DNA from: a virus
Lineage: Duplodnaviria > Caudoviricetes
Reading direction: 5' to 3' (one strand)
Length of the DNA stretch: 57,034 nt
Virus record (IMG/VR): IMGVR_UViG_3300036886_000048
Coordinates: 1-57,034 of that record
Shown here: one piece after another, positions 655 through 37,306 of the stretch
How positions within the stretch are numbered: the stretch's first letter is position 1
Layout: the number at the start of each line of letters is the position of its first letter
The notes under the pieces: generated by a model
Told to the model about the DNA's origin: nothing
Databases searched by the model: none
What the model saw: only the letters and a program-made list of their open reading frames with translations
Made by a program: the position numbers and the translations under genes

Positions 655-660
655 AATAAT
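632..660 (+). promoter_or_regulatory. sigma70-type promoter
   Basis: TTGACA-17-AATAAT, followed by ACTTTCAAACAGGAG leader. Confidence 0.7.
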
Positions 661-687
661 ATAGCCACTTTCAAACAGGAGAATGCC

Positions 688-1636: not shown

Positions 1637-1650
1637 ACCGGGCTACGAAG

Positions 1651-2471: not shown

Positions 2472-2542
2472 GGGGTCTTTTGGTGAATCTAAATTTGGCA
2501 ATTGGAGGACAGGCTGGGTTTTCTACTCGCTGAAAATAATAC

Positions 2543-2570
2543 TTGCTTTATTATTTGGTATGTGTATAAT
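2543..2570 (+). promoter_or_regulatory. sigma70-type promoter
   Basis: TTGCTT-16-TATAAT. Confidence 0.65.
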
Positions 2571-2604
2571 TAGCACATCTAAACAGCAAACCAAGGAGAA
2601 CGAA

Positions 2605-2934: not shown

Positions 2935-3103
2935 ACTAAGGGCGATTGATACCTGCAACCTTTCCATTGCACCTGCTAAACTTTTCCAGCTAAACTACCC
3001 TCAATTCGGAATAGTTTAGCTGTCCCAATTTTAGTTTACTAAACTTTAATTGATCCAGACTTCCCGGGTCACAACCACCAGTTAAAAATAATCAGTAAGC
3101 CTA

Positions 3104-3132
3104 TTGACAAACCCGAAAAATGAGAGGATAGT
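3104..3132 (+). promoter_or_regulatory. sigma70-type promoter
   Basis: TTGACA-17-GATAGT, then AACAGGAGGCTATCATG. Confidence 0.65.
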
Positions 3133-3156
3133 TCTACCTAACAACAGGAGGCTATC

Positions 3157-3561
3157 ATGGACACTACAGACGTTTACCGGGTTGAAGATATAGACGGAGC
3201 AGGAGCATTCACTTCAAGACACTTCTCCCTTTGTGACATGTTCGCAGAGTACCAGCTTAACTGGGTATACCCGTTTGCAGTTGAAGATTGCGGAAGGGAA
3301 CCATGTGAAGGCGAACTTCATGCAGTAAAGAGTTTGGAACTGTTGGCTTACTGGTTCCCTGCCGAAGCAGTAGAAGAAATGACAGGTATGGCAAGAATAA
3401 AGCACTACAGGGTTGACAGTGATAATGTAACGCACGGTAAGTTTCAGTTGATATTTGATCCGGTCCGTGCTGAACTGGTTGAAGATTTTCCTGTTTCAAA
3501 GCTGTTCGAACTTGTACCAGACTATCCCGATTTTGAAACCATCATTAGGAGGTTATCATGA
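3157..3561 (+). CDS. early hypothetical protein
   Basis: Strong RBS; VYRVE...G.G...WF...Q pattern. Confidence 0.75.
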   Translation: MDTTDVYRVEDIDGAGAFTSRHFSLCDMFAEYQLNWVYPFAVEDCGREPCEGELHAVKSLELLAYWFPAEAVEEMTGMARIKHYRVDSDNVTHGKFQLIFDPVRAELVEDFPVSKLFELVPDYPDFETIIRRLS

Positions 3562-3713
3562 AATACTTATCTTTGTATACTACGCCTTGCGGCAACGATT
3601 TAGACTTTACATTGACTGCGGAATCAGCATGGAGCAAGATCAAGCCTATATCTGAATGCACACTGGTTCAGACGCGGGTTAGGGTTACGATCCATCACGG
3701 AACCGCTTACTAA
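3558..3713 (+). CDS. 51-aa hypothetical protein (not in ORF track)
   Basis: GGAGGTTATCATGAAA start; MKYLSLYTTPCGND... Confidence 0.6.
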   Translation: MKYLSLYTTPCGNDLDFTLTAESAWSKIKPISECTLVQTRVRVTIHHGTAY

Positions 3714-3724
3714 CGGAGGTTATC

Positions 3725-3865
3725 ATGAAAGTATTCCACATCAAAATGTTGCTTGGAACCGGAGAATTAAAGCATGTTATCCGGGCGGCATACAACAAGG
3801 TCGAGGCAAGCCGTGCTGCATGTCTCGAATTCGATGGAGAACTGATTTACGTTATGGAGGATTGA
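3725..3865 (+). CDS. 46-aa hypothetical protein (not in ORF track)
   Basis: Identical GGAGGTTATCATGAAA start; MKVFHIKMLLG... Confidence 0.6.
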   Translation: MKVFHIKMLLGTGELKHVIRAAYNKVEASRAACLEFDGELIYVMED

Positions 3866-4042
3866 TGCAATGAACTCAGCACTGCCAGTTTTGATAGCCT
3901 GCCTGTTGACGCCTTGCCCGACCACGAAAGAACCTTCCGCCCGGTACAGTCTCAGCACTCAGGCTAGTTCAATCGGCCTCAAGGCAACCGGTTCATTGTC
4001 GGGCTTCAAGCCATACGATCAATTGAGGGTTGCTAAAACCCA

Positions 4043-4071
4043 TTGACAAGTTTACTAAAGTATGGTATAAT
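4043..4071 (+). promoter_or_regulatory. perfect consensus sigma70 promoter
   Basis: TTGACA-17-TATAAT with TG extended -10. Confidence 0.85.
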
Positions 4072-4529
4072 TTAGTTGTGGGAGTTTAACTCCGGGTGAC
4101 TTTAGCAGGTTGCCCGGTTATTTTGTGGGGGTCGGAATGAAAGTGGAATTGATCCGGCTCTTACTGGCCGCTGTCCTCAGTATCGCAAACCATCAAGACT
4201 GCACCGGGGTCGAGGAGTATCGTAAACATGAAGCAAAGTGGCCTCACCACCGGAAGCACCATCCAAAGCCTAAATTCTATGGTTCCCGGCCTCGCTAGAG
4301 GGGCTACAACGAGTTAACGCAAGTCTGGATAGGCTGACCTAGCTTGGGAAATCCCGCACGAACTGTCCACGGTTGTTGGCGATTCTTGAGAACCATTGAC
4401 AAACCACCTAGTCTGCCTAAAAAATAGGCAACAATCACAAAAAATAACTGGTTGATTTTATTAGACCGACATTCCCAAAGTGTCGAATTTTACGGGGTTA
4501 TACCTCAAACTTACTAACAGGAGAACTAA

Positions 4530-5624
4530 ATGGCCTCACCTTCAACTTGGGTTAATCGACAAGCTAACGGACTGCCGTTGTTGGTGGATATGCGCCATGA
4601 CGATGTACCGATAGTCAACCAGTTATCAGCCAACTCATGCTCTGCTAATTCCGCAGTTGACGTGATGGAAATATGGGAAGTATGGCACGGCACGCCTTGC
4701 ACCTTGTCCCGGTTGTTCCAGTATTACAACGAACGGACTTACACTCCGGGCGCACTGAACAGTGACAACGGCGCAGAGTCTGGCAGCGTGTTCAAGTCCG
4801 CTGCTGAATTAGGAGTGTGTCTGGAGTCTACATGGCCTTATAATCTTGCAACCGTCCAGACTAAACCATCTCAGGCAGCGTACATGGAAGCGCAAAGCCA
4901 CAAGATTACCAGTTACAGTATGCTACCGCAGGCACAACTGAAAGTCGCATTGGCTATGGGTTATCCTGTACGAGTAGCCATGAACGTTCGAACCGGCTTC
5001 TTTGACGTGTACGGCAGCAAGTCTCAGCAGACGGCACAATTCGCAACTTACCTTCAAACTCCTGTTGTTGGCGGTCATGATATGGTGATCCTTGGCTATG
5101 ACGCAAGAGATAACACCATCCTGATCCGTAACTCATGGGGGACAGGTTGGGGTGATGGTGGCTACTGTTACATGCCTGAGTCTATCCTACTGCAAGACGA
5201 ATTCAACCTTTGGGTTGTCACCGGGTACAATGGTTACACTATGCCTGCATTCTGGACACCTGACAGTACGCCAGTGTCACAGCCCACGGTTGGTGTTTAT
5301 CTTGGCCCCGGAGAACAGTTTATCTCAGCCTGTCCTGCCATGATATACGGCAACACTCCGAGGGGCATGGTCACACTCCTGAAAGCGGCACGGAACAACG
5401 TACTGGATTCGAACATTGGGACATTGGCATTGCCAGACAGAACACTTGAGGACTTGGGACTTCTCCAGCAGGGAAGTTCACTCGAAGTGCGACTGAACGG
5501 TGAACTACTTGCCAGTTTGAACACATCTAACGGTGCAAGTCACCAGTTGATCCTTGCCGATGGAAACCACGTGTTACTTAGGATTAACGCCATAATGACA
5601 CTGGATGGAACGGTAATTTCGTAA
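4530..5624 (+). CDS. papain-family (C1) cysteine peptidase with C-terminal extension
   Basis: NQ..NSCSAN, GGHDMVILGYD, IRNSWGTGWGDGGY. Confidence 0.9.
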   Translation: MASPSTWVNRQANGLPLLVDMRHDDVPIVNQLSANSCSANSAVDVMEIWEVWHGTPCTLSRLFQYYNERTYTPGALNSDNGAESGSVFKSAAELGVCLESTWPYNLATVQTKPSQAAYMEAQSHKITSYSMLPQAQLKVALAMGYPVRVAMNVRTGFFDVYGSKSQQTAQFATYLQTPVVGGHDMVILGYDARDNTILIRNSWGTGWGDGGYCYMPESILLQDEFNLWVVTGYNGYTMPAFWTPDSTPVSQPTVGVYLGPGEQFISACPAMIYGNTPRGMVTLLKAARNNVLDSNIGTLALPDRTLEDLGLLQQGSSLEVRLNGELLASLNTSNGASHQLILADGNHVLLRINAIMTLDGTVIS

Positions 5625-5640
5625 ATAGTTAAGAAAGTGC

Positions 5641-5669
5641 TTGACATTTGTACAGAATTATGAGATAAT
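5641..5669 (+). promoter_or_regulatory. sigma70-type promoter of the structural operon
   Basis: TTGACA-17-GATAAT, then a ~195-nt structured leader. Confidence 0.75.
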
Positions 5670-5867
5670 ACAGTGCCTCAAGGAGAGGAATAACAGTTTG
5701 CAACAGCAAACGTCAACCGGGACAAGGCCACAACCAAGTCCCAACCGTAACAAGGCAGCTACCACCCCGCGCACAGTGGGACTTCGAAGCTGCCTTTCCC
5801 GCTCCTAAAGCCGCCTTACGAAATCTATACGCTTCACTAATGCTACACCAAAAAGGAGACTTACGCA

Positions 5868-6968
5868 ATGAATATTTTTACAATTGGCGATTCGACTGTT
5901 GCTCACGTCGATATGGTTCTTCCCCCCTCAGTGGGTGGAAAAGACCTGTCAAGGATCATCGGGTACATCGAAAACGCTGGAGTACCGTCTGGAGTTGTTC
6001 CTGACTTCATTGGCCAAAAACTGTTTGATACGACCAACCATAACTTTTATTATGCCTACGGACTGTCTGCCGGGAACTGGCGCACTACCACTTCTATCGC
6101 GCTGAGTGCTGGAGAAGTGGCATTCTTGTCTGGAGTAACTGCCGGAACAGGTACAGTGTCTCAGGCACTTGTACTGGATGCAAGTGGCGCAGTTCAGATG
6201 CCTGCAACCGGGACACTTGGTTTGTCCTATGCCGCAGTGAACGCTGCCGGAACCACTCCGGGAACCTATGCGGCCTTGACACACCAGTTGAACTCCGTGC
6301 TGCTGGCTGATAATACGACGGGTGTCGCACTTCCTGCCGCCGTTGGTGGACAAGCCGTGTACATTCTGAATACTGTCCAAAACAAACGCCTTCAAGTTTC
6401 TCCGGTGGCTTCGGGCAATGACCAGATCAACAGCCTGACTGCAAACACTGGCGAATTTTCACTTGCTGCTGGAAAAGGCGCATGGTTTATTCCTACGTCT
6501 GCAACTCAATGGTATGTTGACCGTTCGGTTGAAAACAAACTTGGTGACAACAACGATGGGGCGACTGCTCCTGAAACAATTACCAAAAAGGCCACGATTA
6601 CCTACACAAACTTGGGTACGGCTGGCAAGGTTGACGTGTTGACCCCTGCTTCGGCAACTGCTCAGTATTACGTTTCGAACGTGGTTCTTGTTGGTGGTGG
6701 AACGAGCTTCGGGCCTACAGGCGACAGACTTGTTTCTTTGACCGATGGAACAACAGTCTGGACTACGATTGCCAATGCTGACCTTGAAGCTGCACCATCC
6801 GTTTCACTGCCGTTCGGCAATGCCAAAGTACCGTATCTTACCGGAACAATTACAACGCCAAGTGCAGCAGGCGCACAGATTTACTTCCAGTACAGTGGAG
6901 GAACAACAGATGAAACCACGGCAGGGTCGATTGACTTTTTTGTTACATTGACCAAAGCAACCGTATAA
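5868..6968 (+). CDS. putative virion structural protein
   Basis: AAGGAG RBS; Thr/Ala/Gly-rich, beta-type composition. Confidence 0.6.
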   Translation: MNIFTIGDSTVAHVDMVLPPSVGGKDLSRIIGYIENAGVPSGVVPDFIGQKLFDTTNHNFYYAYGLSAGNWRTTTSIALSAGEVAFLSGVTAGTGTVSQALVLDASGAVQMPATGTLGLSYAAVNAAGTTPGTYAALTHQLNSVLLADNTTGVALPAAVGGQAVYILNTVQNKRLQVSPVASGNDQINSLTANTGEFSLAAGKGAWFIPTSATQWYVDRSVENKLGDNNDGATAPETITKKATITYTNLGTAGKVDVLTPASATAQYYVSNVVLVGGGTSFGPTGDRLVSLTDGTTVWTTIANADLEAAPSVSLPFGNAKVPYLTGTITTPSAAGAQIYFQYSGGTTDETTAGSIDFFVTLTKATV

Positions 6969-7083
6969 TAATGGGGATGCCTCAGGGGGGAAAAACCCAT
7001 AAGTACCCCGGAACGGGTTTTACATCATGACTTTTTTGACATTCCTCAAAGATTTATTCACATTCAAGACAAAGGATATACCA

Positions 7084-7362
7084 ATGCTTACAATCCATAA
7101 CGTAATTGCAGAAAAAATTGCTGCCGCTACCGCGAAGGCAGCCACACTTACCGCAGAAGCAGAAGCAGTTGCCACACAGGAAATTGCCGCTGCAAGGGAC
7201 AAACTTGCAAAAGTGAAGGCCGAAATCGAACCCTCAGTCTCTGCCGAAATTGTTTCACTCAAAAATGACTTGGCAAACGTGGAAGCTGCCGGGGAAACAT
7301 TTTTTAATAAGGGTGTTGACGAACTCAAATCCCTGTTTGATGCAGTGAGCAAACATCTATGA
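7084..7362 (+). CDS. Ala-rich helical hypothetical protein
   Basis: AAGGA RBS before ATG 7084 (the ORF track starts at 7027). Confidence 0.65.
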   Translation: MLTIHNVIAEKIAAATAKAATLTAEAEAVATQEIAAARDKLAKVKAEIEPSVSAEIVSLKNDLANVEAAGETFFNKGVDELKSLFDAVSKHL

Positions 7363-7420
7363 AAACCCTTTCAGGCGGTTGCGGGAAGCCCACACCTAAA
7401 CCTCCCAAAAAATAATTCAA

Positions 7421-7714
7421 ATGTTCGTCCGGTTAAAGTTTATAGTCGCGGACTATTGCAAAAAAGTTTTAACCGCCCGGAACAACCGCGATTGGAGTGC
7501 CACAAAACTTATTGTCCTGATGGGTTCTGGTGTGATGATGTTCGAATTCGTCTACTCCCATTCACAGGAATATTTGCAGTTGGGATTAGGCCTCAGTGCT
7601 TTGATTGCAGCGTTGGCTGGCAAATACTTCGTGGAAAATTCCAACTCGGATGAAGAACCTCGTACTGGTGGTGGTACAGACCACGACCATCCAAGAATAG
7701 ACAAGGATGCTTAA
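7421..7714 (+). CDS. putative holin-like membrane protein
   Basis: Two hydrophobic segments and a charged C-tail. Confidence 0.45.
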   Translation: MFVRLKFIVADYCKKVLTARNNRDWSATKLIVLMGSGVMMFEFVYSHSQEYLQLGLGLSALIAALAGKYFVENSNSDEEPRTGGGTDHDHPRIDKDA

Positions 7715-8170
7715 ATGAGAATATCCAAAGATTCAATAACCCGGATTGCTGCCGACACTACCCAATATTCACTTGGGGATGTTATTACAAATACGGTTGC
7801 CTCAGTATTAAGGTTTGCTACAAACAATAGTTCTGGTTCAATCAATTCTGCAATACTGGTCGATTCGGTAATTGCTGGTGGAACCAAACTTCAAGCTGAT
7901 TTGCTTTTATATTCGGCTGCTCCGACAATCGCAGCAGACAATGCCGCGTTTAGTCCGACTGCCGCACAGGAAACAAACTTGGTTGCAGTAGTTCCGTTTT
8001 TGACAGCAAATTTTGTGGGAGCCGTAACCGCAGGGCATACGGTAAGTGTTCTGACTGCCCCAATTCCATTTGTAGCTCCTGACGGAGTTTTGTACGGAGT
8101 TTTAGTTGCGCGTAGTACGTATACGCCAACTGGAGCAGAGGTAATTACTATCAATTTAGGTATAGTGTGA
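7715..8170 (+). CDS. putative virion protein
   Basis: Beta-rich; contiguous in the operon. Confidence 0.55.
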   Translation: MRISKDSITRIAADTTQYSLGDVITNTVASVLRFATNNSSGSINSAILVDSVIAGGTKLQADLLLYSAAPTIAADNAAFSPTAAQETNLVAVVPFLTANFVGAVTAGHTVSVLTAPIPFVAPDGVLYGVLVARSTYTPTGAEVITINLGIV

Positions 8171-8427
8171 TGACTGTTCCGAATGGTTGGCAACTCGATA
8201 AGACCGTTTCGATTGGGCATATTGTTACCACATTGACAATTATCATATCTTTGTTTGTCTGGATTGAGAGAGTTGACTTACGGCTCATTGTTTTAGAAAC
8301 AGAGATTGTCCAAATGAAGGGTAATGAATCCCGGTTAGAAGCCACTCAGAAAGAAAACGTTGACGAACTAAAATCCATTCTGTTACGAATTGAACAGAAA
8401 CTGGACGACAAGGCCGATAAAAAATGA
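8167..8427 (+). CDS. membrane-anchored coiled-coil protein
   Basis: One TM segment, then coiled coil ending IEQKLD. Confidence 0.6.
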   Translation: MMTVPNGWQLDKTVSIGHIVTTLTIIISLFVWIERVDLRLIVLETEIVQMKGNESRLEATQKENVDELKSILLRIEQKLDDKADKK

Positions 8428-10583
8428 GTGTTTATTATCCCGACACGGTTGCAGGAACGGCGCAATCCCAACCTTCCATGCAACAAAACGCTGCCGGGGA
8501 TACTTTTGCTGTTCCTCCGCAAGTACCCAAACAGGGAATGATTCTACCCTATCAGAGTACGGACACTGTTTTATTGTTGGCAGATCGGTACGCCCGTGGA
8601 ATTGAAGGAATGGCTAAGTGGGCGGAAGAAGCAAAGAAATGCACGGACATGACAGAAGGTGCTCAATGGACACCTGAAGCACTGGCCGTATTGGAAGCAC
8701 AGGATCGTAAAGCGTTTAAGTGGAACGAGATTGCTCCAATCGTCCGGTTGGTATTGGGGTATCAGCGCAGTACAAAAACCGATTTGAAGATTACCCCAAG
8801 TTGGCAAGGTTCAGCAACTACTCAGACTGCCGATGCGCTGACCTCTATCCTGAAACAGTTGGCTGAGAATTGCCAGCAATCGTATGTGGATACCGAAGTA
8901 TTCATGGATGGGATTATAACAGGTCGGGGTTTTTATGATGCCCGACTGAATTTTGAAGATAATGAATTGGGTGAAGTTTTCATTACATCCAGTGATCCGT
9001 TTAGTACGATACTTGACCCTGATGGGGATCAATACGACTTGAACGAATTGAATTATATCATTGACGATAGATGGGTTACGATTGACGAAGTCGAATCCGT
9101 GTATGGGCCGGATGCAGGAATGATGCTCAGACCGTTGTTCAGTGCCGCAGGCATGGCTGGATTACCGAATAGTTCTCTCTCTGCCCTTTTACAGACTGCT
9201 GCACCTTGGCGGTATTTTGGCGGTGCAAAAGAAACATTTGGAAGTCGTACACTTGAAAGTTATTATTTGCAATCATATGATCCTGCCAGAAAGAACATCC
9301 GGCTTTTGGATTGTCAGTCTTACGTTCGATGCCGTCGCAGGTACTGGATTGACCTCGAAACTGGACGCAAGGAGCCTGTAGATGATTCGTGGACTCCGCA
9401 ACAAGTTCAAGCCGTGTTGGATTGGAGTAACCAGAAATATCAGGCGATGGGCAAGCAAAGTCCTATCAGGTTGGTGGTAAGACCGGGGAAAAGGATTCGC
9501 TGGACTACGATGGTTGGCGACATTGTGGTTTATGACGGCTGGAGTCCGTACAAAACGTACACCAAGATCGGTTTCTTCCCGTGGTTTCGCCGGGGAAAAA
9601 CGATGGGCATGGTGTCCGACATGATCGAACCTCAAGAGGCTATCAACAAAATGGGCAGTTCTGAAATGGATATTGTTGCCCGTTCCGCAAATAGCGGTTG
9701 GAAATATCACCATGACTCACTTACCGCCGAAGAAAAAGATCGGTTGCAAGAGGAAGGTGCTTCTCCCGGATACAATATGGAATGGAAGGGCAGTGTTCCT
9801 CCAGAACGAATCGAACCCGGTGCGCCTCCCACACAACTAGAACATTTGCAATTAAGGAACAGAGATTCGTTGAAAAGTATTTCGGGAATTAACGATTCTG
9901 CCCTTGGACAAATTGACCGGGTGCAATCAGGTGTAGCGGTGGAAGCCAGACAGCGGCAGTCAGTTATATCTGTTCAGGTATACATGGATAACTTTAGTAG
10001 AAGTAAGGAGTTACTTGGGCGTAAGGAACTCGAACTCATACAGGATCACTACACCGAAACCCGCACGTATCGTCTGATGGGTGATGATGGGAAGAACCAG
10101 CAGGTAACGATCAACGAAAAACTGGAAAGTGGTGAGATTCGGAACGATGTGACGAACGGTGAATACAAGTTTGTTGTGGATGAAACCCCGTTGGCAAAAT
10201 CCTTCGCTTCGGCTCAGTTCGATGAAACAATGAGTTTGATACAGAACGGCGTTTTGAATATCCAGATACCTGCCGTGCGTGACCAGATCATCGACTTGTC
10301 CAGTTTGCCAAACAAAGACCAGTTGAAACAGGCTATTCAACAATGGCAACAGTCTCAGGCTTCTGCAATGCAGTCACAAAACAAACGTCCTCCCTCGGAG
10401 TCTCTCAATTATAAAGATGCACCCGATGATGTGAAACGGCAGATCGAACAACAGGCAGGATTACAACCCTCTCAGTTACAGCCGCAACAGGCCGTGGCAG
10501 GGCAACCGCAAGGTGGCGGGACTCCTACTGCACAACCATCACAACAACCCGCGCAAAACGCGCCTATCGCGGTTCAGGGGTAA
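8424..10583 (+). CDS. portal protein (P22-like)
   Basis: G.QW...N.I.P.V..VLG, DGIITGRG, PQEAINK, SGVAVEARQ; Gln/Pro-rich tail. Confidence 0.9.
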   Translation: MSVYYPDTVAGTAQSQPSMQQNAAGDTFAVPPQVPKQGMILPYQSTDTVLLLADRYARGIEGMAKWAEEAKKCTDMTEGAQWTPEALAVLEAQDRKAFKWNEIAPIVRLVLGYQRSTKTDLKITPSWQGSATTQTADALTSILKQLAENCQQSYVDTEVFMDGIITGRGFYDARLNFEDNELGEVFITSSDPFSTILDPDGDQYDLNELNYIIDDRWVTIDEVESVYGPDAGMMLRPLFSAAGMAGLPNSSLSALLQTAAPWRYFGGAKETFGSRTLESYYLQSYDPARKNIRLLDCQSYVRCRRRYWIDLETGRKEPVDDSWTPQQVQAVLDWSNQKYQAMGKQSPIRLVVRPGKRIRWTTMVGDIVVYDGWSPYKTYTKIGFFPWFRRGKTMGMVSDMIEPQEAINKMGSSEMDIVARSANSGWKYHHDSLTAEEKDRLQEEGASPGYNMEWKGSVPPERIEPGAPPTQLEHLQLRNRDSLKSISGINDSALGQIDRVQSGVAVEARQRQSVISVQVYMDNFSRSKELLGRKELELIQDHYTETRTYRLMGDDGKNQQVTINEKLESGEIRNDVTNGEYKFVVDETPLAKSFASAQFDETMSLIQNGVLNIQIPAVRDQIIDLSSLPNKDQLKQAIQQWQQSQASAMQSQNKRPPSESLNYKDAPDDVKRQIEQQAGLQPSQLQPQQAVAGQPQGGGTPTAQPSQQPAQNAPIAVQG

Positions 10584-15652: not shown

Positions 15653-16384
15653 GTGGAAAGAGTGAGTGCCAAGTTTAAAGTGGCGGAAATAGCCGAACTT
15701 GCATTGGGCAAGATCGGGGCGTTTACCGTTGCGATGGTAGCAGCCGATCCCGATGAAATGGTTCGAACCGTCAAATGGATGGATATTGTGGTAGCCGAAC
15801 TGGTCGGAACAAACCGGGCGTATTGGCTTACCCCTCAAAGTGTGACAGCCGTTTTAACAGCGGCTGTTCCCACATATACACTTTCAACACTGTTGGGAAC
15901 GAGTTACCCGGCAGACGGGATACAATTCCCTACACAGGCGTTTATCGTGGACGCGGCTGGTTCTTCAAACGAAGTCGAACTTATTTCACGACAGGCATAT
16001 GAGAGAATCGACACAAAAACTGACGTAGGTTCCCCTACGAAGATTTACATTGATCGACTCAATGACACACAAAAAATTTCAGTGTATCCAGTTCCTTCTG
16101 ACGGAACACTGAGTTTGCGTTTGGTATTCCAAACTTTCGCTACAAACTTGACAGAAGGAACACCTGAGTTTGGTGGTAATGTTCGTCATGGTTTTTCTGT
16201 CGAATGGCAAAAATGGTTGATTACTGCAACTGCTGCCGAAATTGGAAATGGCCCGGTTCGTAGATTGCCGTTGCAGGAAGTTCACGACATGAAACAGGAT
16301 GCGTCAATCTCATTGCTTACCCTTATCAATTATTCAAACACTCAAAAAACTACAACACCCAAACGAACCAAGGGGATGATTTAA
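15653..16384 (+). CDS. head-tail adaptor protein
   Basis: ALGKIG N-terminus; G.P...Y...VYPVP motif. Confidence 0.7.
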   Translation: MERVSAKFKVAEIAELALGKIGAFTVAMVAADPDEMVRTVKWMDIVVAELVGTNRAYWLTPQSVTAVLTAAVPTYTLSTLLGTSYPADGIQFPTQAFIVDAAGSSNEVELISRQAYERIDTKTDVGSPTKIYIDRLNDTQKISVYPVPSDGTLSLRLVFQTFATNLTEGTPEFGGNVRHGFSVEWQKWLITATAAEIGNGPVRRLPLQEVHDMKQDASISLLTLINYSNTQKTTTPKRTKGMI

Positions 16385-27961: not shown

Positions 27962-30900
27962 ATGACCACTACTGTAAATCTCCCCGATGGAACCCAACTG
28001 AATTTCCCTGACGGCATGGACAACCAATCCATGCAGTCTGCAATTTACACGTCGTTTCCTCAGTACGCCCCAAAACCAGCTCCATCCTTTTTTGAACGGA
28101 CACAGCAAAAAATTGCTGCGGCGGTTGCGCCTACATCTGATGTTTCGGTTATGGATCAGATCAAGAATATTTCTAGTGGACAGATCAAAAATGCGACTGC
28201 CAAATTCAATGCCCCAGATAGTACGATAGGCTTCGATCAAAATGGAATCAGCGATACCGGAACTCGTTCGTTGACTCAAGCCATTCTAAACCAATCTCCT
28301 GTGCGGAAAGTAGAAACAAATCCTGCAACTCTGGAACCAGATTATGTTGCTCCGGTTCAACAATCGTTGACACCTGTCGAAACCGCTTATACTAACGTCG
28401 GAAAGATTTTGGATAACGCAAAGACAGGCGCAGTAGATTTAGCTGTTCCTCAGAATACCGAACAGGTTCTTGCAAGAGATTCACAAAACATGCATCCGAC
28501 TGAAAAACCTGTGGTTACTGACATTGGAAACGCCATTGCAGAAACTGCTAAAAGTTCAGGTCGTTCTATCGAAGATTTATATGCAAGTCTTGGCGGAGGT
28601 ATGCATATCCTTAACCAAGATTATGCCGCAGGAATTGTTGCAGATAACATGAAAGCTGGAGACAGCAGTTATCGTGCTACAAGGTTTCCCGGCAAAGTAG
28701 TTGAAAACGCATTGCCTTTAGTTCCAGCGGTGGCCTCGTTCTTTATACCCGGAGTTGGAGAGGTTTTAGGTTCGGCAATGTTGGCTGCTCAGTTTGGATG
28801 GGGTTCTGGAAAAGACGCGATAGATCAAGGGAAAAGCGTGGGTAACGCTCAACTAAAAACTGCAGAATATGCAGTACTTGGAACTTCGTTAGGAGGATTG
28901 GTAACAGGTGGAGCTACAAAAGCACTGAGTATAATTCCCGGAATCGGGAAAGCATTTGTTCCGGCAGCAGCAGATACTGTAGGACAGTATGCCTCAAGAA
29001 TGGCGCAAGGTGCTGCTGGAATGGCGGCATTTGTTCCTGTTGGAACAGCGATCAATCAAGGCACAGATGTTCTTACAGGACAGTCTGGCAAACCAGAAGA
29101 TTACCAATATATGCCTACCGTCGATCAACTCATGGCGGGCGCATTACTTCCTGTGCCTCATGCTACACGCGATTTTGTGCAACGCAATACGATGCCCGAA
29201 AAATATATCGGATTGCCCAACGGTGACACAGCAATGTCTCATAGTTACGGAGCACTTTTTTCGTCTGAAGATGCGGCAAATTCTTTCATAGAGTCAAACG
29301 GTTTAACTCGTGGATGGGAACCGCAAGCACTTACCGTTTCAGGCAACAAATTGGGTTTCGTAGTAAAAGCAAAGCCAGCATTGGAAGTGGACTTAACTCC
29401 TAAGCGCACTGCCTCTGATGGTTCAACACCACTTGATTTTTCTCAGCCTGAACCATCAACACAACCACCTATCCCGGAACTAACTGACGCAGTTGGCGGA
29501 ACTCCTGTTGGAAATCAAGAAGTTAATTCTCAGATGGCAAACGCATTCCGTTCTGCAACAGAGGATGCCGCATACAAACAAGTCGAACAGCAGAAACAGG
29601 CTTCAATCGAAAAGGCATATAACTTAAATTTTGCTGAGAACCAATTTCAAAAATATCAAGGAGAACAAAATGTCCCAAGAAACGAGACTGTACATCCCGA
29701 AATACCTACGCAAAGCACTCAAGGAGAAACTGGTGTCACCGGAGGAAGCACTGAAAATGGCATTCTACGATCAGATAATGGCGGGGGCGAGTCAGGGTCT
29801 AATCCAGTACGCCAAGATCAGCAAGGACTTAAAACAGTCCTCGACGCTGTTAAAACAGGAACAGATCAAGTTTCTAATGCGGGGCAACAAACTGAACTGA
29901 CAGGCCGTAGAAATCACATTGAGTCGGTTCCTCCAGAACTGGATCAACGCAGTGGTTTAGATCAACGCCATGACGAAATAATGCGTATGCAAGTTGCTCA
30001 CATGACTCCTGAAGAATTGCGCCATACTATTTTGCACGACGAACTTACCGATTTACCAAATCTTAGAAATTTCAACGAATCCCCTGTACAAGCGATAGTT
30101 GGCTTTGGTGACGTAAACGGATTGAAAGGGTTGAATGATACACATGGACACCCTGCTGGTGATGCATTGATAGCAGCTACTGGACATATTCTTAAAAAAG
30201 TAACCATATCTACAGGAGGTAGAGTAACTTTTTACCGCAGGGGAGGCGATGAATTTCTTGTATACGGCCCGGATGAAAAAGCTGTAAATGCCGCGATTGC
30301 ACTGGCCAGGAGAGAACTTAAAAAGGCATCTTTCGATTTTCAAACTATAGACGGACAAACGGGAACTCAAAAGGGTATCAGTATTGCCTTTGGTATAGGC
30401 AAGGATGTTGCATCAGCCGAAGTTAAAATGAAAGCTGACAAAGCTAGGCAAAAAGCCAACGGTGCAGCAGCAAGGGGAGAATTATCTTCAGGTTTAAGTT
30501 TACACAATCCTGTGCAAGACGCAACCAATAATGCAATTGACGCTTTGGCGCAACAGCACGGAGTTTCTACAACACCAGTTGCACCAATTGACGACCATAG
30601 AACACAGGTTCCAGCCGTAGCGAAGTTAGATAAAACTCTTCGCATCATTCAAAATTTGCCTGAACAACGTGTTAATCAAACAAACACATTACCGGAACCT
30701 GTCGAAATTCCAGCAAAAAACGAACAGGTTATTGAACAAAAACCTTCTACTCAAGTCCAAGGATTAAGGCCGATTATTGAGGACATGATCCGAAACAAAG
30801 TAGTTGCGTCAAGGCCGAACAAAGCAGGACAGAGATTAGACCTTGCTCCAGCTATTCAACGTGCCAAGGAAATCCTGTCAGGAACGCGCACAGCGACTCC

Positions 30901-33900
30901 GGCAGAAGTTTCGTGGTGGACACGTACTGCAAAACGTTTTGAAGGCGTGGATGCTCCTTCCGGGCAGGCAGCGAGGGCAATCATTGATTATCTCAAGTCA
31001 GGAAAAACAGAAATTCAGAAAAGTGTTCATGTTTACCCCGGAGAATCGACACCCGAAATTCTGCATAACCAAGACACCAAAAATGCGATCATCAAACAGG
31101 TACAGTTAGACCATCCTACGTGGGGTGATGCAATTACCAAGTTACTCGAACGTGCCGACAACGGACAACGGGGCGGTTTGGTAATTGGCAGTGAAAAAGA
31201 AAATCTGCAACGTGCCGCCGAAATGTTGGCACAGAAAAATGGCACTACAGTACAACATGAGCTTGACAGATTGAGCAGTGCAACGCAACAAAGTATTACC
31301 GTGATCCGTGCAAAAACCGAAGATGAAGCGCATAAAATTGCTTCCGCAGTCGGTGGTCGTGTTGGTTCTGACTTGCAAGGATGGAAAGTTGAAACAAGTA
31401 CGCCTGTAACTGGGCCGTTGCAATACAGTATTGCCGCTTATGAAGGATTATCACCCGAAGAAATAACAACCAATCCTTCCAGTAGCAAACTTTTAGGATT
31501 GCTCAACCGAGTGGAAAAAGCAAAGCGAACTGCGATTTTGCGCGGTCTTGTAGATGATGCGGGAAATTTGCATGTGTGGGCGGCACACGATGCGATACAC
31601 CCAGAAGGTGCGAAAGCCTCAGGTATACCTTACGACTATACCAAACGAGTGGTAATTACAAAAACCGAAGGACTTCCGTATTTTAGTTTCGTTGACTTAG
31701 GTATAAACAAATCTGACTTAATTAGGCGTTATGGAAATAACGAAGTGTTGTTTGATGTTCCGGGCAAAGGTATTGCAACAGGTGCAGAATATGCGAAACA
31801 GGAAAATATCAAATCCGATAAACTACTGCATGACTTGAGGATTGAACCTCTGCAATATAGCAAAAATCAAATGGGTTTTTATAGCCAATTGAAAAACGCG
31901 ATTGATTCGGCTTCGGATAAAATATTTACAACAGGGCAACAAGTTAAATCGTGGTTGGATGCCAACGCTGGAAAACTCGGAGTCAAGAAAGATGAAATCT
32001 ATTGGTCAGGATTGACAGAATATCTGGAAATGAACCCCGGCAAAATCACCAAGCAAGCCGTTAAGTCGTTCTTGCAGATTTACGGTAATGTCGAAGTCAA
32101 AGAAGTAACTCTTGGAGGTTTTAAAAACGAGTGGGAAATTCTAAGTGAACACACTGGAAAAAGAATCGGCGGAACGTACCCGACTGAACTTGCAGCCAGA
32201 CGTGCCGCTAACGATTCTCCAGTTGGTGACAATCCAATAGTAAATCAGGTACGTGCAGACAACACAGGAGGTGCACCAAAGTATTACGTTTATCAACTTC
32301 CCGGTGGAGAGAATTACAAAGAGCTATTGCTGACGCTTCCAGAAAAAAACGATTCTACAGAAAAACTAAAAGATGCTCTTGATAAAGAATACAGAGTGCA
32401 TGGAAATTCTGAACATTATGACGAGCTTCTGGCGCAGCAAAAAAAGATAAGGGATGAAAATAAAAATTTTACATCGCAGCACTTCAACGAAAAAAACATC
32501 CTTGTTCACATCCGATTTAACGAGCGCACTGATGCAAACGGCAAGAAGGTTTTATTCATTGAAGAAATCCAATCTGACTGGGGACAGAAGGGAAAGAAAG
32601 AAGGATTTGTAACCGATGGTAAATTGCCAACTGACTGGACGGTACACCAGACTGGCCCGGATGGGTCTTGGTATGTACTTGATAAATCCAATACCCAAGT
32701 TGGTATCTACGGACGAACACGCGAGGAAGCCATTGCGACAGCACTTAATCCGAAGGGATATACAGGTGGCGTATCTAATGCCCCATTCGTGACAGATACA
32801 AAATCATGGACGACCCTTGCGTTAAAACGCATGATTATCTACGCTGCAGAAAACGGTTACGATAAAATTGCGTGGACAACAGGAGAACAACAGGTCGATA
32901 GATATAACCTTGCACACCAATTACAAAAGATAACCGCAATAAAACGAGGCGACACGTTTCAGATTCTTGGAATTGGAACTGACGGACAATCTCATAATTT
33001 TGGGGATCATACCGTTGCAGAGTTACCAAATGTCGTAGGAAAAGAACTAGCCGAAAAAATAGCAAATCAAGAAATGCCGAATGAAGTGTACGCAGGAAAT
33101 GATTTGAAGATTGGCGGCGAAGGAATGAAAGGTTATTATGACCAGATCGTTCCGCAGGTTGCAAACGAGATTCTGAAAAAGGTTGGTGGTGGGAAAGTTG
33201 AGCCTGTCGGAATAAATACTAGACATGAAGGTGCGGTATCGGGTGAAATGGTGATGAATCAATGGCATATTCCGATGGACCAACAAGATCGGTATTGGCA
33301 TGACATGACTTTAACGCAACGTTATACTGCAATTCATGCGTTTAGATCGGAAAAAGATGTTCAACCCGGATTTGTTATTACCCCTGAATTACGGACAAAA
33401 ATTCAATCCGAAGGTCTGCCGTTATTCAGCAAACAAAACACACGCACGCCAGGTTTCTATAGTCCTGAACTCGGAACAGCGTTTGTCAATCATGACGAAG
33501 TATCCGTAAAAGATGCGAGTGCAATTATCCTCCACGAAATGACTCACTCCGCCGACACTAAGACGCATCCCACGGATACTGACGGAAGAATGACCATCAT
33601 TGGAAAACAAGTTGTAACGCGCATGAACACGCCCGGAGTAATGGGATTACCTGTTTACGCTCGTGTGTGGGACAGACTGGTAAACGCGGGAGAAACAAAC
33701 AATCCACGCGAAGCTTTGAATTATCTTGTGGAAGAAACTTTGAACGATGCCAAACGATTCGGTTATTCTCGACTGGACAAAGGATTCATGGGATGGCTTC
33801 AACGTCAAGGATTTGCTGTATCCAAACCTGTAAAGGAATGGGTTGCGAATATCCGGGCAGCAATGTACGAACACGGAATTTCTGTGAAGGTTGAAGATTT

Positions 33901-36900
33901 AACAGTGGACGACATGATTGCTGCTGCTACTCGCGGAATGAAACGTGTTGCAGAAGGAAAACAAGAAGTTGCCGGATTAGAAAATAAAGCAATCTTGAAT
34001 GTTGGTTTAGACATTCCCGGTGGAGGAAAACTCAATCCAGAAGATGTACGTTCAAGTGTTGAGAAACTCGGAGTAAAGGTTCTGAGTGAAAATCTTCATC
34101 AATCCGATACAGAAATGACTTCGGTTTTGAGATTGTCTCGCCCATTGACAAAAGACGAAGTGTATCAATTGGCAGTCGAACACAAGCAAGACGCGATTGC
34201 ACAACGACTTCCAAACGGAACAGGTTTCCTCGCTGGCCCCAAGGCCGCAGATTGGGGAGACTATAATCCTGAATATTTCAAAATGCCAAACGGAAAATCT
34301 GCATCCGAATCAAATACTATTCAAGGTTCGGAACGAGGATCAAAACCCGGAGAAATTTCTGTAACCGGAGTTCACTATGGCAAGAAACTTTTCTCAGAAT
34401 TAAGTGGAAAATTTTTCGGTACGGCTGGCGCAGGTGCTGAACGCGACTGGTTGAATAAATTGCCAAAAGACGATCCATTGCAAACTCGGCTTGCGTTTTA
34501 TGTGAACGAAGGAAACGGAACATTCCCTGAATTGCAGAACGGTGTGGGTCATGTTCCGCACGAAGTTCCATTAAACAATCTTTATGACGTTGGATCAAAA
34601 CTTATAAAGACTCCTGTGGGAGATTACGCCGCCTTTGAACATGAAGTTTTGAAACAAGGTTACAGCGGCTACTACATCAAGAATGCTCAAGGTGTTGGCA
34701 AACGCCAGCAAGGTGTTGCGGTTCTTCTTGGCGATGCTGCAAAATCGCTAACGGTTCCTTCGCAAATTCAATTTTCTAAAAAAGAAACATTTGAAAATCT
34801 TAAAACAACGGTTGATGATTTAGCTGACCGAGTTAAATCAAACAAATCTATGTCAACCGTTTCAAGCGGAATATCTGGCGCGTGGGACGGAATTCAACGA
34901 GCCTTCGCTCCGCAATATCGTTCGCCGGAAGCAAGAGAGGTTTCCAGAATTTTGATTGAAGGACTTGGCACAAAAGAAATGGAAGGAATCCGTTTCCGTG
35001 CCAAACTGAACAACGCGAGTAAAGTCAACAATGAAGAACTGACGCTTTCTCAAAAAGCCAGAGACATTGTTGAAAAAGGTTTAACGGTTGCCGCAGATAA
35101 AGTCTTTCTAAGAAACAGCAAGGAAGAAAACTACGCATTTATGCAGGCAATGGACACCGGAGATTCTGCTTATTTTTCTACACGTCCCGAACTAAAAAGT
35201 ATGGCATACGTGATGGGCAAAATGTTCTACGACAAAGCGCGAGAAGTTCAATCTCTTGGTACAGGCGCACTCGAAACTATCCGTGAAAATTATTTTCCCC
35301 ATATCTGGAACCGCGAACCTTCTGGTGATACACAACGTCAAATTATGACCGCACTTTCAAAACGTCCATTTGAAGGACAAAAAGATTTTGTCAAGGCGCG
35401 TATTTTTGATGATTTCAATGCCGGAATTAAAGCTGGACTCGAACCTGTTTCTGATAACCCTCTCGATTTAGTTCTACTCAAGATGGAGGAAATGGACAAA
35501 TATATTCTGGCGCATAAAACTCTTCGGACGATTGCAGAAAATTCAGACGCAGTTACATTGATTGGTGCTGGAGATAAAAAACCTGCCGGGTACGAGGATG
35601 TAAACGGACGATTCGGATTCATCACAATCGGAAATGAGAAACTCAGATACGTTGCGCGTGACGACGTAGCTCAGGTCATTAACAATTATCTTTCTCCAAA
35701 TCTGTATCACAATAAGTATGTCGGTAAATTATATACTGGCGGAATGTCAGCCGCAAACACTTTGAACCAGTTTCAACTTGGGGTTTTCTCAGCATTTCAC
35801 GCCGGGTTTACTTCGTTTGAAGCCGTTATTTCTCACGCCGCAGTAGGTATTAAGGCACTTTCTGGTGGAGATTTCAAAGCCGCTGCACATTATATTGGAA
35901 CTGCTCCGGCAGCATGGATCAATAATCCAAAGATGGGTGACAGAATTATAAAGGAAATGCTGACTAAAGGTTCACACCCCGAAATGGCTCAGATCATCGA
36001 AGGGCTTCAACTCGCCGGATTTAAGTGGCAAATGGATACTCGGTTAAGAACCGATTCCACAAAGAGAATGATTCAGGCTTGGGGCGAAGGGAGACAAATA
36101 GTTGCCGCCGCGCATTCGCTCAACGCAGTAGTCGAACAATCGGCTCGTCCGATTCTTGAGTGGCTTGTGCCTCGTCAAAAGTTCGGTGTATTCGGTGAAA
36201 TGTATAACAAATGGATTCAAGATAACCCGAATGCGTCACATGAAGAATTGAGGAATTCCGCCCAACAAATTTGGAACAGAGTTGATTCACGTCTAGGCCA
36301 AGTGGTATATACACGACTGTTCATGCACAACGTCACAAAGAATTTTGGACAACTTCTGCTTCGTGCGCCGGGATGGACAGGCGGAACGATTCTCGAAGTG
36401 GGTGGCGGCATGAAAGACCTTGCGCTTTACGCAAAGGATGTGGCAACAGGAAAAAATCCCGGAGAAATTAGTGACCGGGCAGCGTACACGTTGTCGATGT
36501 TGTTGGTAACTTCAATTTCAAACGCACTTCTGACAACGTTATTTACTGGTAGTGCGCCGAAAGATTGGAAAGACCTTGTTGCATTCCGCACAGGTAACGT
36601 AGACGAACACGGCAGACCAGAACGATTTATGCTACCCACATATATGAAAGACGTGTATGCGTATGCTCACGACCCCGTCAAAACATTGTTGCACAAAACT
36701 CACCCGTTGCTATCGGTAGTCTCTGACATTGCCCGAAACAGAGACTATTATGGAACCGAGATTCGTAGCGAGGACGACGGACTTTTAAGGCAGCTAGGAG
36801 AGGCAGCAGGGTACGTTGCTGGCTCGTTCGTTCCGTTCTGGATGAAAGGTGTTCAAAAAGAACACGCGAGGGGAGGTAGCCTTATGACTGAGGCTTTGCC

Positions 36901-37306
36901 TTTAGTTGGGGTTATGCCAGCACCATCGGACATAAATAAGTCGAGAGCCGAAATTCTAATGAGCGAATACAGTGCCGACAGATTGCCTCAAGGAACCAGA
37001 ACTCGCGCACAGGCAGAAAAGGCAGCAGCTTCGTCAGAAATTTATTCCGCTATCAGGAAGAACGACATTGCAAAAGCACAGAAACTATTTGCGGAAGATC
37101 AGGCAAAAGGAATCTTGACTGCTCAAGACTATCGAAAAATTGCCATGTCGTCTGGAAACAATTATTTCGTGAACACATTTAAGAAGTTGACTTACGAACA
37201 GGCAGTTCGAGTTATGGCAGTAGCAACTCCAACAGAACAAAAAGAACTTGCTTTTGTATTTGCCCGGAAAAGGGCAACCTTTATTCAGAAAGGCGGCAGG
37301 CCATGA
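27962..37306 (+). CDS. giant polyvalent internal virion protein (GGDEF, EEIQSDW domain, HExxH zincin, SAM-lyase-like, ART-like)
   Basis: LPDGTQLNFPDG N-terminus; DELTDLPN..DVNGLKGLNDTHGHPAGD..RRGGDEF; FIEEIQSDW; ILHEMTH; HYG...GYSGY. Confidence 0.85.
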   Translation: MTTTVNLPDGTQLNFPDGMDNQSMQSAIYTSFPQYAPKPAPSFFERTQQKIAAAVAPTSDVSVMDQIKNISSGQIKNATAKFNAPDSTIGFDQNGISDTGTRSLTQAILNQSPVRKVETNPATLEPDYVAPVQQSLTPVETAYTNVGKILDNAKTGAVDLAVPQNTEQVLARDSQNMHPTEKPVVTDIGNAIAETAKSSGRSIEDLYASLGGGMHILNQDYAAGIVADNMKAGDSSYRATRFPGKVVENALPLVPAVASFFIPGVGEVLGSAMLAAQFGWGSGKDAIDQGKSVGNAQLKTAEYAVLGTSLGGLVTGGATKALSIIPGIGKAFVPAAADTVGQYASRMAQGAAGMAAFVPVGTAINQGTDVLTGQSGKPEDYQYMPTVDQLMAGALLPVPHATRDFVQRNTMPEKYIGLPNGDTAMSHSYGALFSSEDAANSFIESNGLTRGWEPQALTVSGNKLGFVVKAKPALEVDLTPKRTASDGSTPLDFSQPEPSTQPPIPELTDAVGGTPVGNQEVNSQMANAFRSATEDAAYKQVEQQKQASIEKAYNLNFAENQFQKYQGEQNVPRNETVHPEIPTQSTQGETGVTGGSTENGILRSDNGGGESGSNPVRQDQQGLKTVLDAVKTGTDQVSNAGQQTELTGRRNHIESVPPELDQRSGLDQRHDEIMRMQVAHMTPEELRHTILHDELTDLPNLRNFNESPVQAIVGFGDVNGLKGLNDTHGHPAGDALIAATGHILKKVTISTGGRVTFYRRGGDEFLVYGPDEKAVNAAIALARRELKKASFDFQTIDGQTGTQKGISIAFGIGKDVASAEVKMKADKARQKANGAAARGELSSGLSLHNPVQDATNNAIDALAQQHGVSTTPVAPIDDHRTQVPAVAKLDKTLRIIQNLPEQRVNQTNTLPEPVEIPAKNEQVIEQKPSTQVQGLRPIIEDMIRNKVVASRPNKAGQRLDLAPAIQRAKEILSGTRTATPAEVSWWTRTAKRFEGVDAPSGQAARAIIDYLKSGKTEIQKSVHVYPGESTPEILHNQDTKNAIIKQVQLDHPTWGDAITKLLERADNGQRGGLVIGSEKENLQRAAEMLAQKNGTTVQHELDRLSSATQQSITVIRAKTEDEAHKIASAVGGRVGSDLQGWKVETSTPVTGPLQYSIAAYEGLSPEEITTNPSSSKLLGLLNRVEKAKRTAILRGLVDDAGNLHVWAAHDAIHPEGAKASGIPYDYTKRVVITKTEGLPYFSFVDLGINKSDLIRRYGNNEVLFDVPGKGIATGAEYAKQENIKSDKLLHDLRIEPLQYSKNQMGFYSQLKNAIDSASDKIFTTGQQVKSWLDANAGKLGVKKDEIYWSGLTEYLEMNPGKITKQAVKSFLQIYGNVEVKEVTLGGFKNEWEILSEHTGKRIGGTYPTELAARRAANDSPVGDNPIVNQVRADNTGGAPKYYVYQLPGGENYKELLLTLPEKNDSTEKLKDALDKEYRVHGNSEHYDELLAQQKKIRDENKNFTSQHFNEKNILVHIRFNERTDANGKKVLFIEEIQSDWGQKGKKEGFVTDGKLPTDWTVHQTGPDGSWYVLDKSNTQVGIYGRTREEAIATALNPKGYTGGVSNAPFVTDTKSWTTLALKRMIIYAAENGYDKIAWTTGEQQVDRYNLAHQLQKITAIKRGDTFQILGIGTDGQSHNFGDHTVAELPNVVGKELAEKIANQEMPNEVYAGNDLKIGGEGMKGYYDQIVPQVANEILKKVGGGKVEPVGINTRHEGAVSGEMVMNQWHIPMDQQDRYWHDMTLTQRYTAIHAFRSEKDVQPGFVITPELRTKIQSEGLPLFSKQNTRTPGFYSPELGTAFVNHDEVSVKDASAIILHEMTHSADTKTHPTDTDGRMTIIGKQVVTRMNTPGVMGLPVYARVWDRLVNAGETNNPREALNYLVEETLNDAKRFGYSRLDKGFMGWLQRQGFAVSKPVKEWVANIRAAMYEHGISVKVEDLTVDDMIAAATRGMKRVAEGKQEVAGLENKAILNVGLDIPGGGKLNPEDVRSSVEKLGVKVLSENLHQSDTEMTSVLRLSRPLTKDEVYQLAVEHKQDAIAQRLPNGTGFLAGPKAADWGDYNPEYFKMPNGKSASESNTIQGSERGSKPGEISVTGVHYGKKLFSELSGKFFGTAGAGAERDWLNKLPKDDPLQTRLAFYVNEGNGTFPELQNGVGHVPHEVPLNNLYDVGSKLIKTPVGDYAAFEHEVLKQGYSGYYIKNAQGVGKRQQGVAVLLGDAAKSLTVPSQIQFSKKETFENLKTTVDDLADRVKSNKSMSTVSSGISGAWDGIQRAFAPQYRSPEAREVSRILIEGLGTKEMEGIRFRAKLNNASKVNNEELTLSQKARDIVEKGLTVAADKVFLRNSKEENYAFMQAMDTGDSAYFSTRPELKSMAYVMGKMFYDKAREVQSLGTGALETIRENYFPHIWNREPSGDTQRQIMTALSKRPFEGQKDFVKARIFDDFNAGIKAGLEPVSDNPLDLVLLKMEEMDKYILAHKTLRTIAENSDAVTLIGAGDKKPAGYEDVNGRFGFITIGNEKLRYVARDDVAQVINNYLSPNLYHNKYVGKLYTGGMSAANTLNQFQLGVFSAFHAGFTSFEAVISHAAVGIKALSGGDFKAAAHYIGTAPAAWINNPKMGDRIIKEMLTKGSHPEMAQIIEGLQLAGFKWQMDTRLRTDSTKRMIQAWGEGRQIVAAAHSLNAVVEQSARPILEWLVPRQKFGVFGEMYNKWIQDNPNASHEELRNSAQQIWNRVDSRLGQVVYTRLFMHNVTKNFGQLLLRAPGWTGGTILEVGGGMKDLALYAKDVATGKNPGEISDRAAYTLSMLLVTSISNALLTTLFTGSAPKDWKDLVAFRTGNVDEHGRPERFMLPTYMKDVYAYAHDPVKTLLHKTHPLLSVVSDIARNRDYYGTEIRSEDDGLLRQLGEAAGYVAGSFVPFWMKGVQKEHARGGSLMTEALPLVGVMPAPSDINKSRAEILMSEYSADRLPQGTRTRAQAEKAAASSEIYSAIRKNDIAKAQKLFAEDQAKGILTAQDYRKIAMSSGNNYFVNTFKKLTYEQAVRVMAVATPTEQKELAFVFARKRATFIQKGGRP

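Follow-up and report, generated by a model that had tools for sequence, protein, structure and literature searches.

Why should a phage encode one small domain twice, once as a gene of its own and once inside a protein of 3114 amino acids, and what is that domain likely to do? The question is raised by the IMG/VR virus record IMGVR_UViG_3300036886_000048 (Duplodnaviria; Caudoviricetes), a linear and incomplete record (72% by CheckV) of an uncultured phage, whose entire 57,034 bp constitute the window analyzed here. A first-pass annotation had proposed that a domain resembling the S-adenosylmethionine (SAM) lyase of phage T3, which degrades SAM and counters type I restriction-modification (R-M) and bacteriophage exclusion (BREX), is encoded both in the giant protein and as an early gene, providing a two-stage anti-defense in which protein delivered with the DNA is subsequently made anew. 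SAM lyases are a classic phage counter-defense and, to our knowledge, they have been known only as small early proteins. To judge from their sequences, the two copies are paralogues and members of one large, unannotated family of phage domains (phrog_11722, ∼105 amino acids), and this family appears to stand in a remote sister relationship to the SAM lyases of phages exemplified by T3 gp0.3 and Svi3-3. Cleavage of SAM or of a close derivative is the activity that we tentatively favor for it.

Two copies of one domain

The solo gene (P0003, 109 amino acids; positions 2605 to 2934, + strand) is recognized from BLASTP, phrog_11722, the starts of its homologues and an AlphaFold2 model, while the embedded copy, delimited by the extent of the profile match and of the model, corresponds to residues ∼2006-2113 (∼33977 to 34300, + strand) of the giant open reading frame (ORF; P0001, 3114 amino acids, 27962 to 37306, + strand). 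The pairwise alignment suggested by the first-pass annotation was run as BLASTP and gave 32 identities over 96 positions (33%), with 52 positives, one gap and an E value of 2e-13, pairing residues 2012-2106 of the giant with residues 19-114 of the small ORF in the numbering of its 124 amino acid form. Each copy separately matches phrog_11722, a PHROG family annotated as function unknown, over nearly the full length of the 124-position profile (E 9.8e-14, profile positions 5-121, for the solo ORF; E 5.4e-12, positions 3-122, for the giant copy), and when the small protein was compared with the whole record in all six frames the domain was located at 2560-2931 and 33980-34282, with no third copy. 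That the same domain is encoded twice is thus borne out by both the BLASTP alignment and the shared family, and the peptide strings that had been quoted for the two copies are indeed present in the translations of both ORFs. As for the limits 33992-34288 assigned earlier to the embedded copy, the start is correct, coinciding with the first base of the Ile2011 codon, and the end is three codons too long, F2106 ending at 34279. For the small gene, ATG 2605 is the likelier start than ATG 2560 because a Shine-Dalgarno sequence, AAGGAG (2593-2598, + strand), sits six bases upstream of it and because homologues begin there.

The size and architecture of the family were established by searching a profile of the two window copies against 1.84 billion representative proteins (50% identity clusters); at a limit of E≤1e-3 there were 1284 representatives, and at the stricter E≤1e-10 there were 512. 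Among the matches listed, 90 are at least 1000 amino acids long, 28 have 200-999 and 33 have fewer than 200, the window's small ORF being counted twice in this last class. The domain occurs as solo genes of ∼110 amino acids and, more often among the best matches, inside giant mosaic proteins; a search restricted to short proteins returned 164 matches. A word-index homologue search with the single protein found only the query itself, no cultured phage was matched by the giant gene in a megablast search, and no giant family member of a cultured phage was present among 50,697 phage records.

Conservation across the family is concentrated in a small set of residues. In 150 excised copies N5, G7, S40, E43 and W91 are each conserved at 99%, T45, Q68 and G85 at 100% and E/D69 at 95%, and the positions in the 95-100% range also include T/S42, G81, P86, F/Y94 and F99. 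Both window copies retain every one of these positions: the solo copy has N5, G7, S40, T42, E43 (codon 2731-2733), T45, Q68-E69, G81, G85-P86, W91, F94 and F99, and the key residues of the embedded copy are N2013, G2015, S2048, T2050, E2051 (codon 34112-34114), T2053, Q2076-D2077 (codons 34187-34192), G2092-P2093, W2098, Y2101 and F2106. We regard this pattern as enzyme-like.

Relationship to the phage SAM lyases

In order to relate the family to proteins of known activity, a profile of 145 domain-family sequences was aligned using hhalign with one of 15 SAM lyases, comprising those of T3, Pectobacterium phage POP72 and Vibrio phage N4, three further annotated lyases (from Erwinia pEp_SNUABM_10 and two Klebsiella phages) and 9 T3 relatives. 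The alignment has a probability of 86.9%, a P value of 4.1e-6 and a score of 40.7 over 45 columns, to be compared with scores of 12.2 when the lyase profile is reversed and 9.0-14.3 in 20 column shuffles. It pairs E43 with E68 of the T3 enzyme, T45 with T70 (corresponding to S71 in Svi3-3) and Q68-E69 with Q94-D95, and the same register is shared by all of the SAM-lyase sequence matches across methods. When the 145-sequence profile was searched against 177,635 PDB sequences only two matches were found at E≤10, the top one being the T3 SAM lyase 7ock (E 0.47), with the E-x-T of the family placed on E68-K-T70 and its Q-D on Q94-D95. Sub-threshold matches (E≤1) to PF23780 (S-AdoMet_lyase), for which the Pfam gathering threshold is 28 bits, are observed in 8 of 31 family members, the best with an E value of 5e-5 (23.7 bits), and the five matches with coordinates, from four of ten members examined and from the window's small ORF, all align protein residues ∼38-90 with profile positions 47-98. 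The ten best named clusters in the ESM Atlas likewise all carry PF23780, with scores of 0.75-0.83, and are rated as leads only. Taken together these matches provide good evidence for distant homology to the SAM lyases over the β3-α2-β4 core; extending the alignment at low mact added low-confidence columns only, so that the homology speaks to this core and to neither the strand at the N-terminus nor the motif at the C-terminus.

The predicted structures are in keeping with this assignment. AlphaFold2 models of the solo copy (pLDDT 93.4, pTM 0.85) and of the embedded copy (pLDDT 96.4, pTM 0.88) have the same order of elements, β1-α1-β2-β3-α2-β4-β5 followed by a short helix, a predicted ferredoxin-like fold of the PII type. 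For both models the top Foldseek match in the PDB is the Svi3-3 SAM lyase 6zm9, with E values of 3e-3 and 1.5e-3. In the models E43 closes the β2-β3 loop, at the start of β3, and Q68 lies in the α2-β4 loop; the solved lyases have E69/E71 and Q104/Q108 at matching positions, and a catalytic Glu at the end of the T-loop together with a B-loop Gln is described for both SAM lyase and SAM-AMP lyase in the accessible parts of two papers (PMC7877911; PMC12255297). The first of these, as far as its available text goes, reports that the Glu and Gln-Asp/Glu residues of T3 SAMase and Svi3-3 bind SAM (Guo 2021, PMC7877911). In a library of viral models there are nine matches at E≤1e-3, all of them uncharacterized proteins, five from named phages (three Ralstonia, one Achromobacter and one Curvibacter), and no annotated SAM hydrolase ranks higher than 33rd (E 0.025).

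A considerable number of observations weigh against a SAM-lyase assignment and must be set beside the evidence above. The solo ORF reaches only 17.2 bits against PF23780 (E 0.005), under the cut-off, the giant's copy has no Pfam match even at E≤10, a six-frame search of the record with PF23780 gives no match at all, and none of the 120 solo relatives listed, out of 164, carries a precomputed Pfam domain or a name beyond 'hypothetical protein'. The strong hhalign score hinges on the broader SAM-lyase alignment and spans 45 columns only; family alignment A2 against 17 T3 relatives is weak (P 0.0064, probability 5.9%) and 150 domain cuts against 45 T3 relatives give a P value of 0.11. With a 31-sequence profile arsenate reductases (E 0.5) outrank the T3 enzyme 7ock (E 1.3) in the PDB, and a single-sequence PDB search returned nothing meaningful (best E 0.56, MIP18). 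The S-D/N-T-E-P loop of the family has a likeness to the loop that binds phosphate in phosphoglucomutase domain IV (PGM_PMM_IV, in 3 of 31 members, best E 0.008) and also to an arsenate-reductase segment, 'SGTEPT'. At the level of structure the Foldseek superpositions on 6zm9 have TM-scores of only 0.42-0.48 with root-mean-square deviations of 6-7 Å, and ACT domains of phosphoglycerate dehydrogenase match about equally well, with TM-scores of 0.50-0.54 over 74-83 columns. The T-loop is reduced to residues 40-43, 4 residues in place of the 10-12 found in the lyases, Gly56 and Tyr58 of Svi3-3 are without clear counterparts in the family, and there is no conserved aromatic 11 residues before the Glu, with G29 (84%) standing 14 residues before it. 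Finally, if the two ends of the record adjoin, the solo gene has the terminase genes (49-52 kb) on one side and the portal gene (8.4 kb) on the other, an atypical position for an early gene.

How, then, is the family best placed? Like the phage SAM lyases (T3 gp0.3, 7OCK and 8BB1; Svi3-3, 6ZM9 and 6ZNB) it provides small phage proteins with a ferredoxin-like β-α-β-β-α-β core, a Glu-x-Thr/Ser at the start of β3 and a Gln-Asp/Glu in the α2-β4 loop (Q104-E105 in Svi3-3, Q94-D95 in T3), and in Autographiviridae genomes its solo genes occupy the early region on the left. It differs in the length of the domain (∼105 amino acids versus 125-152), in the short T-loop with no counterpart of Tyr58 and an uncertain Gly56, in an L-N-I-G-L strand at the N-terminus and an invariant segment at the C-terminus (G-x-L-x-G-P-x-A-x-x-W-G-x-F-N-P-x-x-F) that includes the invariant aromatics W91, F/Y94 and F99, in a best PF23780 score of 23.7 bits versus a cut-off of 28, and in residing mostly inside giant proteins. 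Membership of PF23780 is rejected on account of the sub-threshold scores, the short T-loop, the lack of a Tyr58 equivalent and the separate C-terminal motif, and it is for the 4-residue loop, the missing Gly56/Tyr58 and the C-terminal segment that a sister family is preferred. The likeness to T3 SAMase proposed at the outset therefore survives in part: the paralogous pair does keep the Glu and the Gln-Asp/Glu and the hhalign P value is convincing, whereas the Pfam threshold, the T-loop and Tyr58 speak for distance. The structural comparison with T3 SAMase and Svi3-3 that had been suggested is similarly divided, with Svi3-3 as the top Foldseek match alongside the hhalign result and TM-scores that stay low.

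Possible substrate and role

The Glu at the start of β3 with a Thr two residues on and the Gln-Asp/Glu of the α2-β4 loop, all kept in this family, would hold the amino group, the ribose and the carboxylate end of SAM if they act as the corresponding positions do in the solved lyases (PMC7877911; PMC12255297, in their accessible parts). The retention of these SAM-site residues makes binding and cleavage of SAM, or of a derivative, the most likely activity; the known lyases turn SAM into methylthioadenosine plus homoserine lactone. The domain, which may assemble like them as a homotrimer with its active sites between subunits, would in this case serve in counter-defense by starving SAM-dependent systems such as type I R-M and BREX, a proposal to which we would commit not quite half of our belief.

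Some of the same evidence would also suit a PII- or ACT-like protein that binds or hydrolyzes another small molecule, such as a phosphorylated nucleotide or an immune second messenger, and that acts as a sponge or degrader against signaling defenses. The fit to ferredoxin-like domains of the ACT type is about equal to the fit to Svi3-3, the S-D/N-T-E-P loop has the likeness to PGM_PMM_IV and arsenate reductase described above, the loop that has been cut to 4 residues is the one that shapes the SAM pocket (cf. the accessible text of PMC12255297), and an intact GGDEF nucleotide cyclase domain is present in the same giant protein. However, the sole significant profile-profile match is to the SAM lyases (P 4e-6), the phosphoglucomutase and arsenate-reductase matches are short and non-significant, and the Glu and Gln that are kept are the structurally conserved pair of SAM lyase and SAM-AMP lyase (PMC12255297, same text); a different ligand seems to us rather unlikely. 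Were the substrate a conjugate of SAM such as SAM-AMP, the target would be type III CRISPR and not restriction or BREX. The SAM-AMP lyases, found in type III CRISPR loci and in a phage AcrIIIB4 candidate, are of the same superfamily with the two conserved residues in common, and in the phage case, too, the enzyme is part of a fusion with a second domain; according to the available portion of the report (PMC12255297) the family includes SAM-AMP-specific enzymes, the fused phage protein cleaved SAM-AMP and apparently not SAM, and the Glu and Gln, both present here, are the only residues structurally conserved between the SAM-AMP lyases and the SAM lyase. Yet our PDB profile search reached the T3 SAM lyase and matched no entry for a SAM-AMP lyase at E≤10, and the solo homologues occupy the location of the SAM lyase in T3-type phages, so that a preference for SAM-AMP is improbable to our minds.

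Least credible of all is convergence at the level of the fold, in which case the domain would have no enzymatic activity and would serve as a structural or protein-binding module, with the solo copy a detached version of it; we give this very little credence. The missed PF23780 thresholds, TM-scores below 0.5 and two unconvincing hhalign runs of three are what would be expected from it, but seven polar residues that are 95-100% invariant in 150 copies would be unusual for a structural module, the sequence matches all fall in one register, and the movement between solo and fused states together with the shifting positions within the giants is how cargo modules behave.

Settings and history of the two copies

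The giant ORF closes a block of virion genes on the + strand that contains the genes for the portal (8424), the major head protein (13245), head closure (20911) and a tail-fibre-like protein (22314), all on the + strand. The only Pfam domain detected in it is GGDEF (PF00990, E 4.7e-11, 43.2 bits versus a cut-off of 23.8) at residues 692-832 (30035 to 30457, + strand), with the motif intact at residue 761; the motif GG[DE]EF is absent from all 75 other giants of the family with 1500 amino acids or more. A zincin-type HExxH motif, HEMTH (residues 1858-1862; 33533 to 33547, + strand), lies ∼150 residues before the domain and marks a candidate processing peptidase. No peptidase family is matched in Pfam or PHROGs, the motif alone being seen; HExxH is present in 60 of the same 75 giants versus 3.8 in shuffled sequences, and the methyltransferase motif [DNS]PP[YFW] in 0 of 75 versus 5.3 in shuffles. 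Directly after the domain is an unnamed module (residues ∼2128-2257; 34343 to 34732, + strand) that is also present in 37 of 113 large proteins of the family, where its placement with respect to the domain varies. It has no PHROG match, and its relatives in two phage records of 39-40 kb, coding stretches 38-41% identical to it, are the unannotated start region of the Phage zth2-2 record and a 'hypothetical protein' coding sequence in Limnohabitans phage DC33; it may be another early-effector module. In BLASTP comparisons with the 113 large proteins only the domain is common to all of them, other segments of the giant being shared with 0-38 and residues ∼1300-1850 with 17-24. PHROGs and Pfam recognize almost nothing in the other segments and in the neighboring genes, where the matches are to large unnamed PHROGs.

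With this make-up the giant looks like a phage polyvalent protein, of which the packaged DarB-like proteins of P1 are an example. In the accessible text of the paper that describes the class, such proteins join unrelated modules, as GGDEF, HExxH, the SAM-lyase-like domain and the 2128-2257 module are joined here, they are encoded among virion genes, and their modules are shuffled and also occur solo (Iyer 2017, PMC5512222). Injection with the DNA and processing by zincin peptidases are proposed there, GGDEF is said to be rare, and neither S-adenosylmethionine nor a SAM hydrolase (SAMase) is mentioned. Iyer 2017 has 40 unnamed LPD domains, and among the LPD families modelled in Pfam none matches the giant at E≤0.1. 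By analogy, the embedded copy would be a cargo module of a 3114 amino acid polyvalent protein at the end of the virion block, presumably packaged in the virion and ejected with the DNA, as the position of the gene suggests, and perhaps released by the giant's own HExxH peptidase.

The solo copy is a separate gene with its own ribosome-binding site, adjoining a Mom-like DNA-modification gene (1651 to 2268, + strand; phrog_1384, E 2.3e-60). It belongs to a cluster of small ORFs at 0.2-5.6 kb that carries this Mom-like gene rather than a methylase, as well as a peptidase-like gene (4530-5624; phrog_16701, E 1e-12), and that is followed by the portal gene; replication genes are found at 37.7-47.7 kb and terminase genes at 49-52 kb. 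The Mom-like and peptidase-like genes that flank the solo gene suggest an accessory counter-defense island just upstream of the portal gene. A candidate promoter read by eye (TTGCTT, 2543-2548; 16-nt spacer; TATAAT, 2565-2570; + strand) precedes the solo gene, and it was skipped by the promoter scan because only 3 of 6 positions of its −35 element match. The sigma-70 scan of positions 1-8500 finds 13 sites where 9.3 ± 3.0 are expected, which is no overall excess. In view of the weak −35 element and this lack of excess, the candidate promoter is no evidence of early timing, and the designation 'early gene' is not established for an ORF that belongs to a linear, incomplete record and is separated by 5.5 kb from the portal gene downstream. 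For solo members in other phages the family context supports, by analogy, an early role: counted from the left terminal repeat, the solo homologue is gene number three in both Achromobacter phage Axy09 and Ralstonia phage vRsoP-WM2, in the same left-end region that the SAM lyase gene occupies in T3, and none of five related records searched, these two phages included, has a PF23780 match above cut-off.

Is the pairing of a solo and a giant copy a general strategy? Among 37 IMG/VR records holding the domain, 8 have it in frames of at least 1000 amino acids and 29 have it solo. Twelve records are at least 90% complete, and of these 11 are solo only, one (G008) is giant only and none has both forms, so two copies as a rule is rejected. 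A second copy is seen in 1 of the 8 other giant-carrying records, the unrelated, high-GC and 64% complete G009, in which a 3434 amino acid ORF (L046, 3595-13899) is accompanied by a separate copy (L045, 1-183), in an ORF whose 5' part is cut off by the contig edge and which stops just past the domain. The two-stage arrangement put forward in the first-pass annotation is therefore rare. In a FastTree tree of 263 domain copies (110 columns, poorly resolved) the solo and giant states cluster, with 13 changes versus ∼75-87 when labels are shuffled, and the domain has moved between solo and fused states and among positions inside giants. The embedded copy of the window falls together with that of a second giant, P0004 (59% identity), and the solo copy is on a long branch. 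Recent internal duplication is rejected on these grounds and on the 33% identity of the pair; because of this identity and the placement on the tree, the two copies appear to be old and were probably acquired separately.

A broader proposal can be formulated, one that we consider possible and on balance doubtful: that the short-T-loop family is a major unrecognized branch of SAM-destroying enzymes, delivered for the most part as polyvalent cargo, which would starve SAM-dependent defenses (type I R-M, BREX) ahead of transcription of the phage genes, and that in the phage of the window and in G009 a solo gene would replenish the enzyme, making SAM depletion a two-stage process. At least 1284 sequence clusters without annotation keep the SAM-binding Glu and Gln of the lyases, and the family is housed mainly in giant proteins that are probably injected. 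If SAM cleavage is correct, the known range of the SAM-lyase enzyme class would widen greatly and phages could bring the enzyme in with their DNA, closing the interval that is open to restriction. Our literature search turned up no report that connects SAM lyase with packaged or polyvalent proteins, and in the one paper that contains both terms they occur only in the reference list. The claim is directly testable, since solo members exist in cultured phages such as Axy09.

Several minor features of the record were noted as well. A weak match to the SU10 adaptor family PF24175 is found at 15653-16384 (23.8 bits versus a cut-off of 27), and this, with the 72% completeness, hints at a podovirus of ∼79 kb that may have a kuravirus-like tail. 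Positions 1-148, at the contig start, contain seven tandem copies of a 21-bp unit (90% matches); they belong to an ORF that continues beyond the edge of the record, and their translation is a peptide repeat of heptad-like character. Within 4043-4127 there is a perfect sigma-70 consensus promoter (TTGACA, 17 nt, TATAAT, with TG; 12 of 12 positions), and within ∼20 nt of it an 11-bp GC-rich hairpin and a T-run, an arrangement that could produce a very short transcript or serve as an attenuator before the 62 amino acid ORF at 4110-4298.

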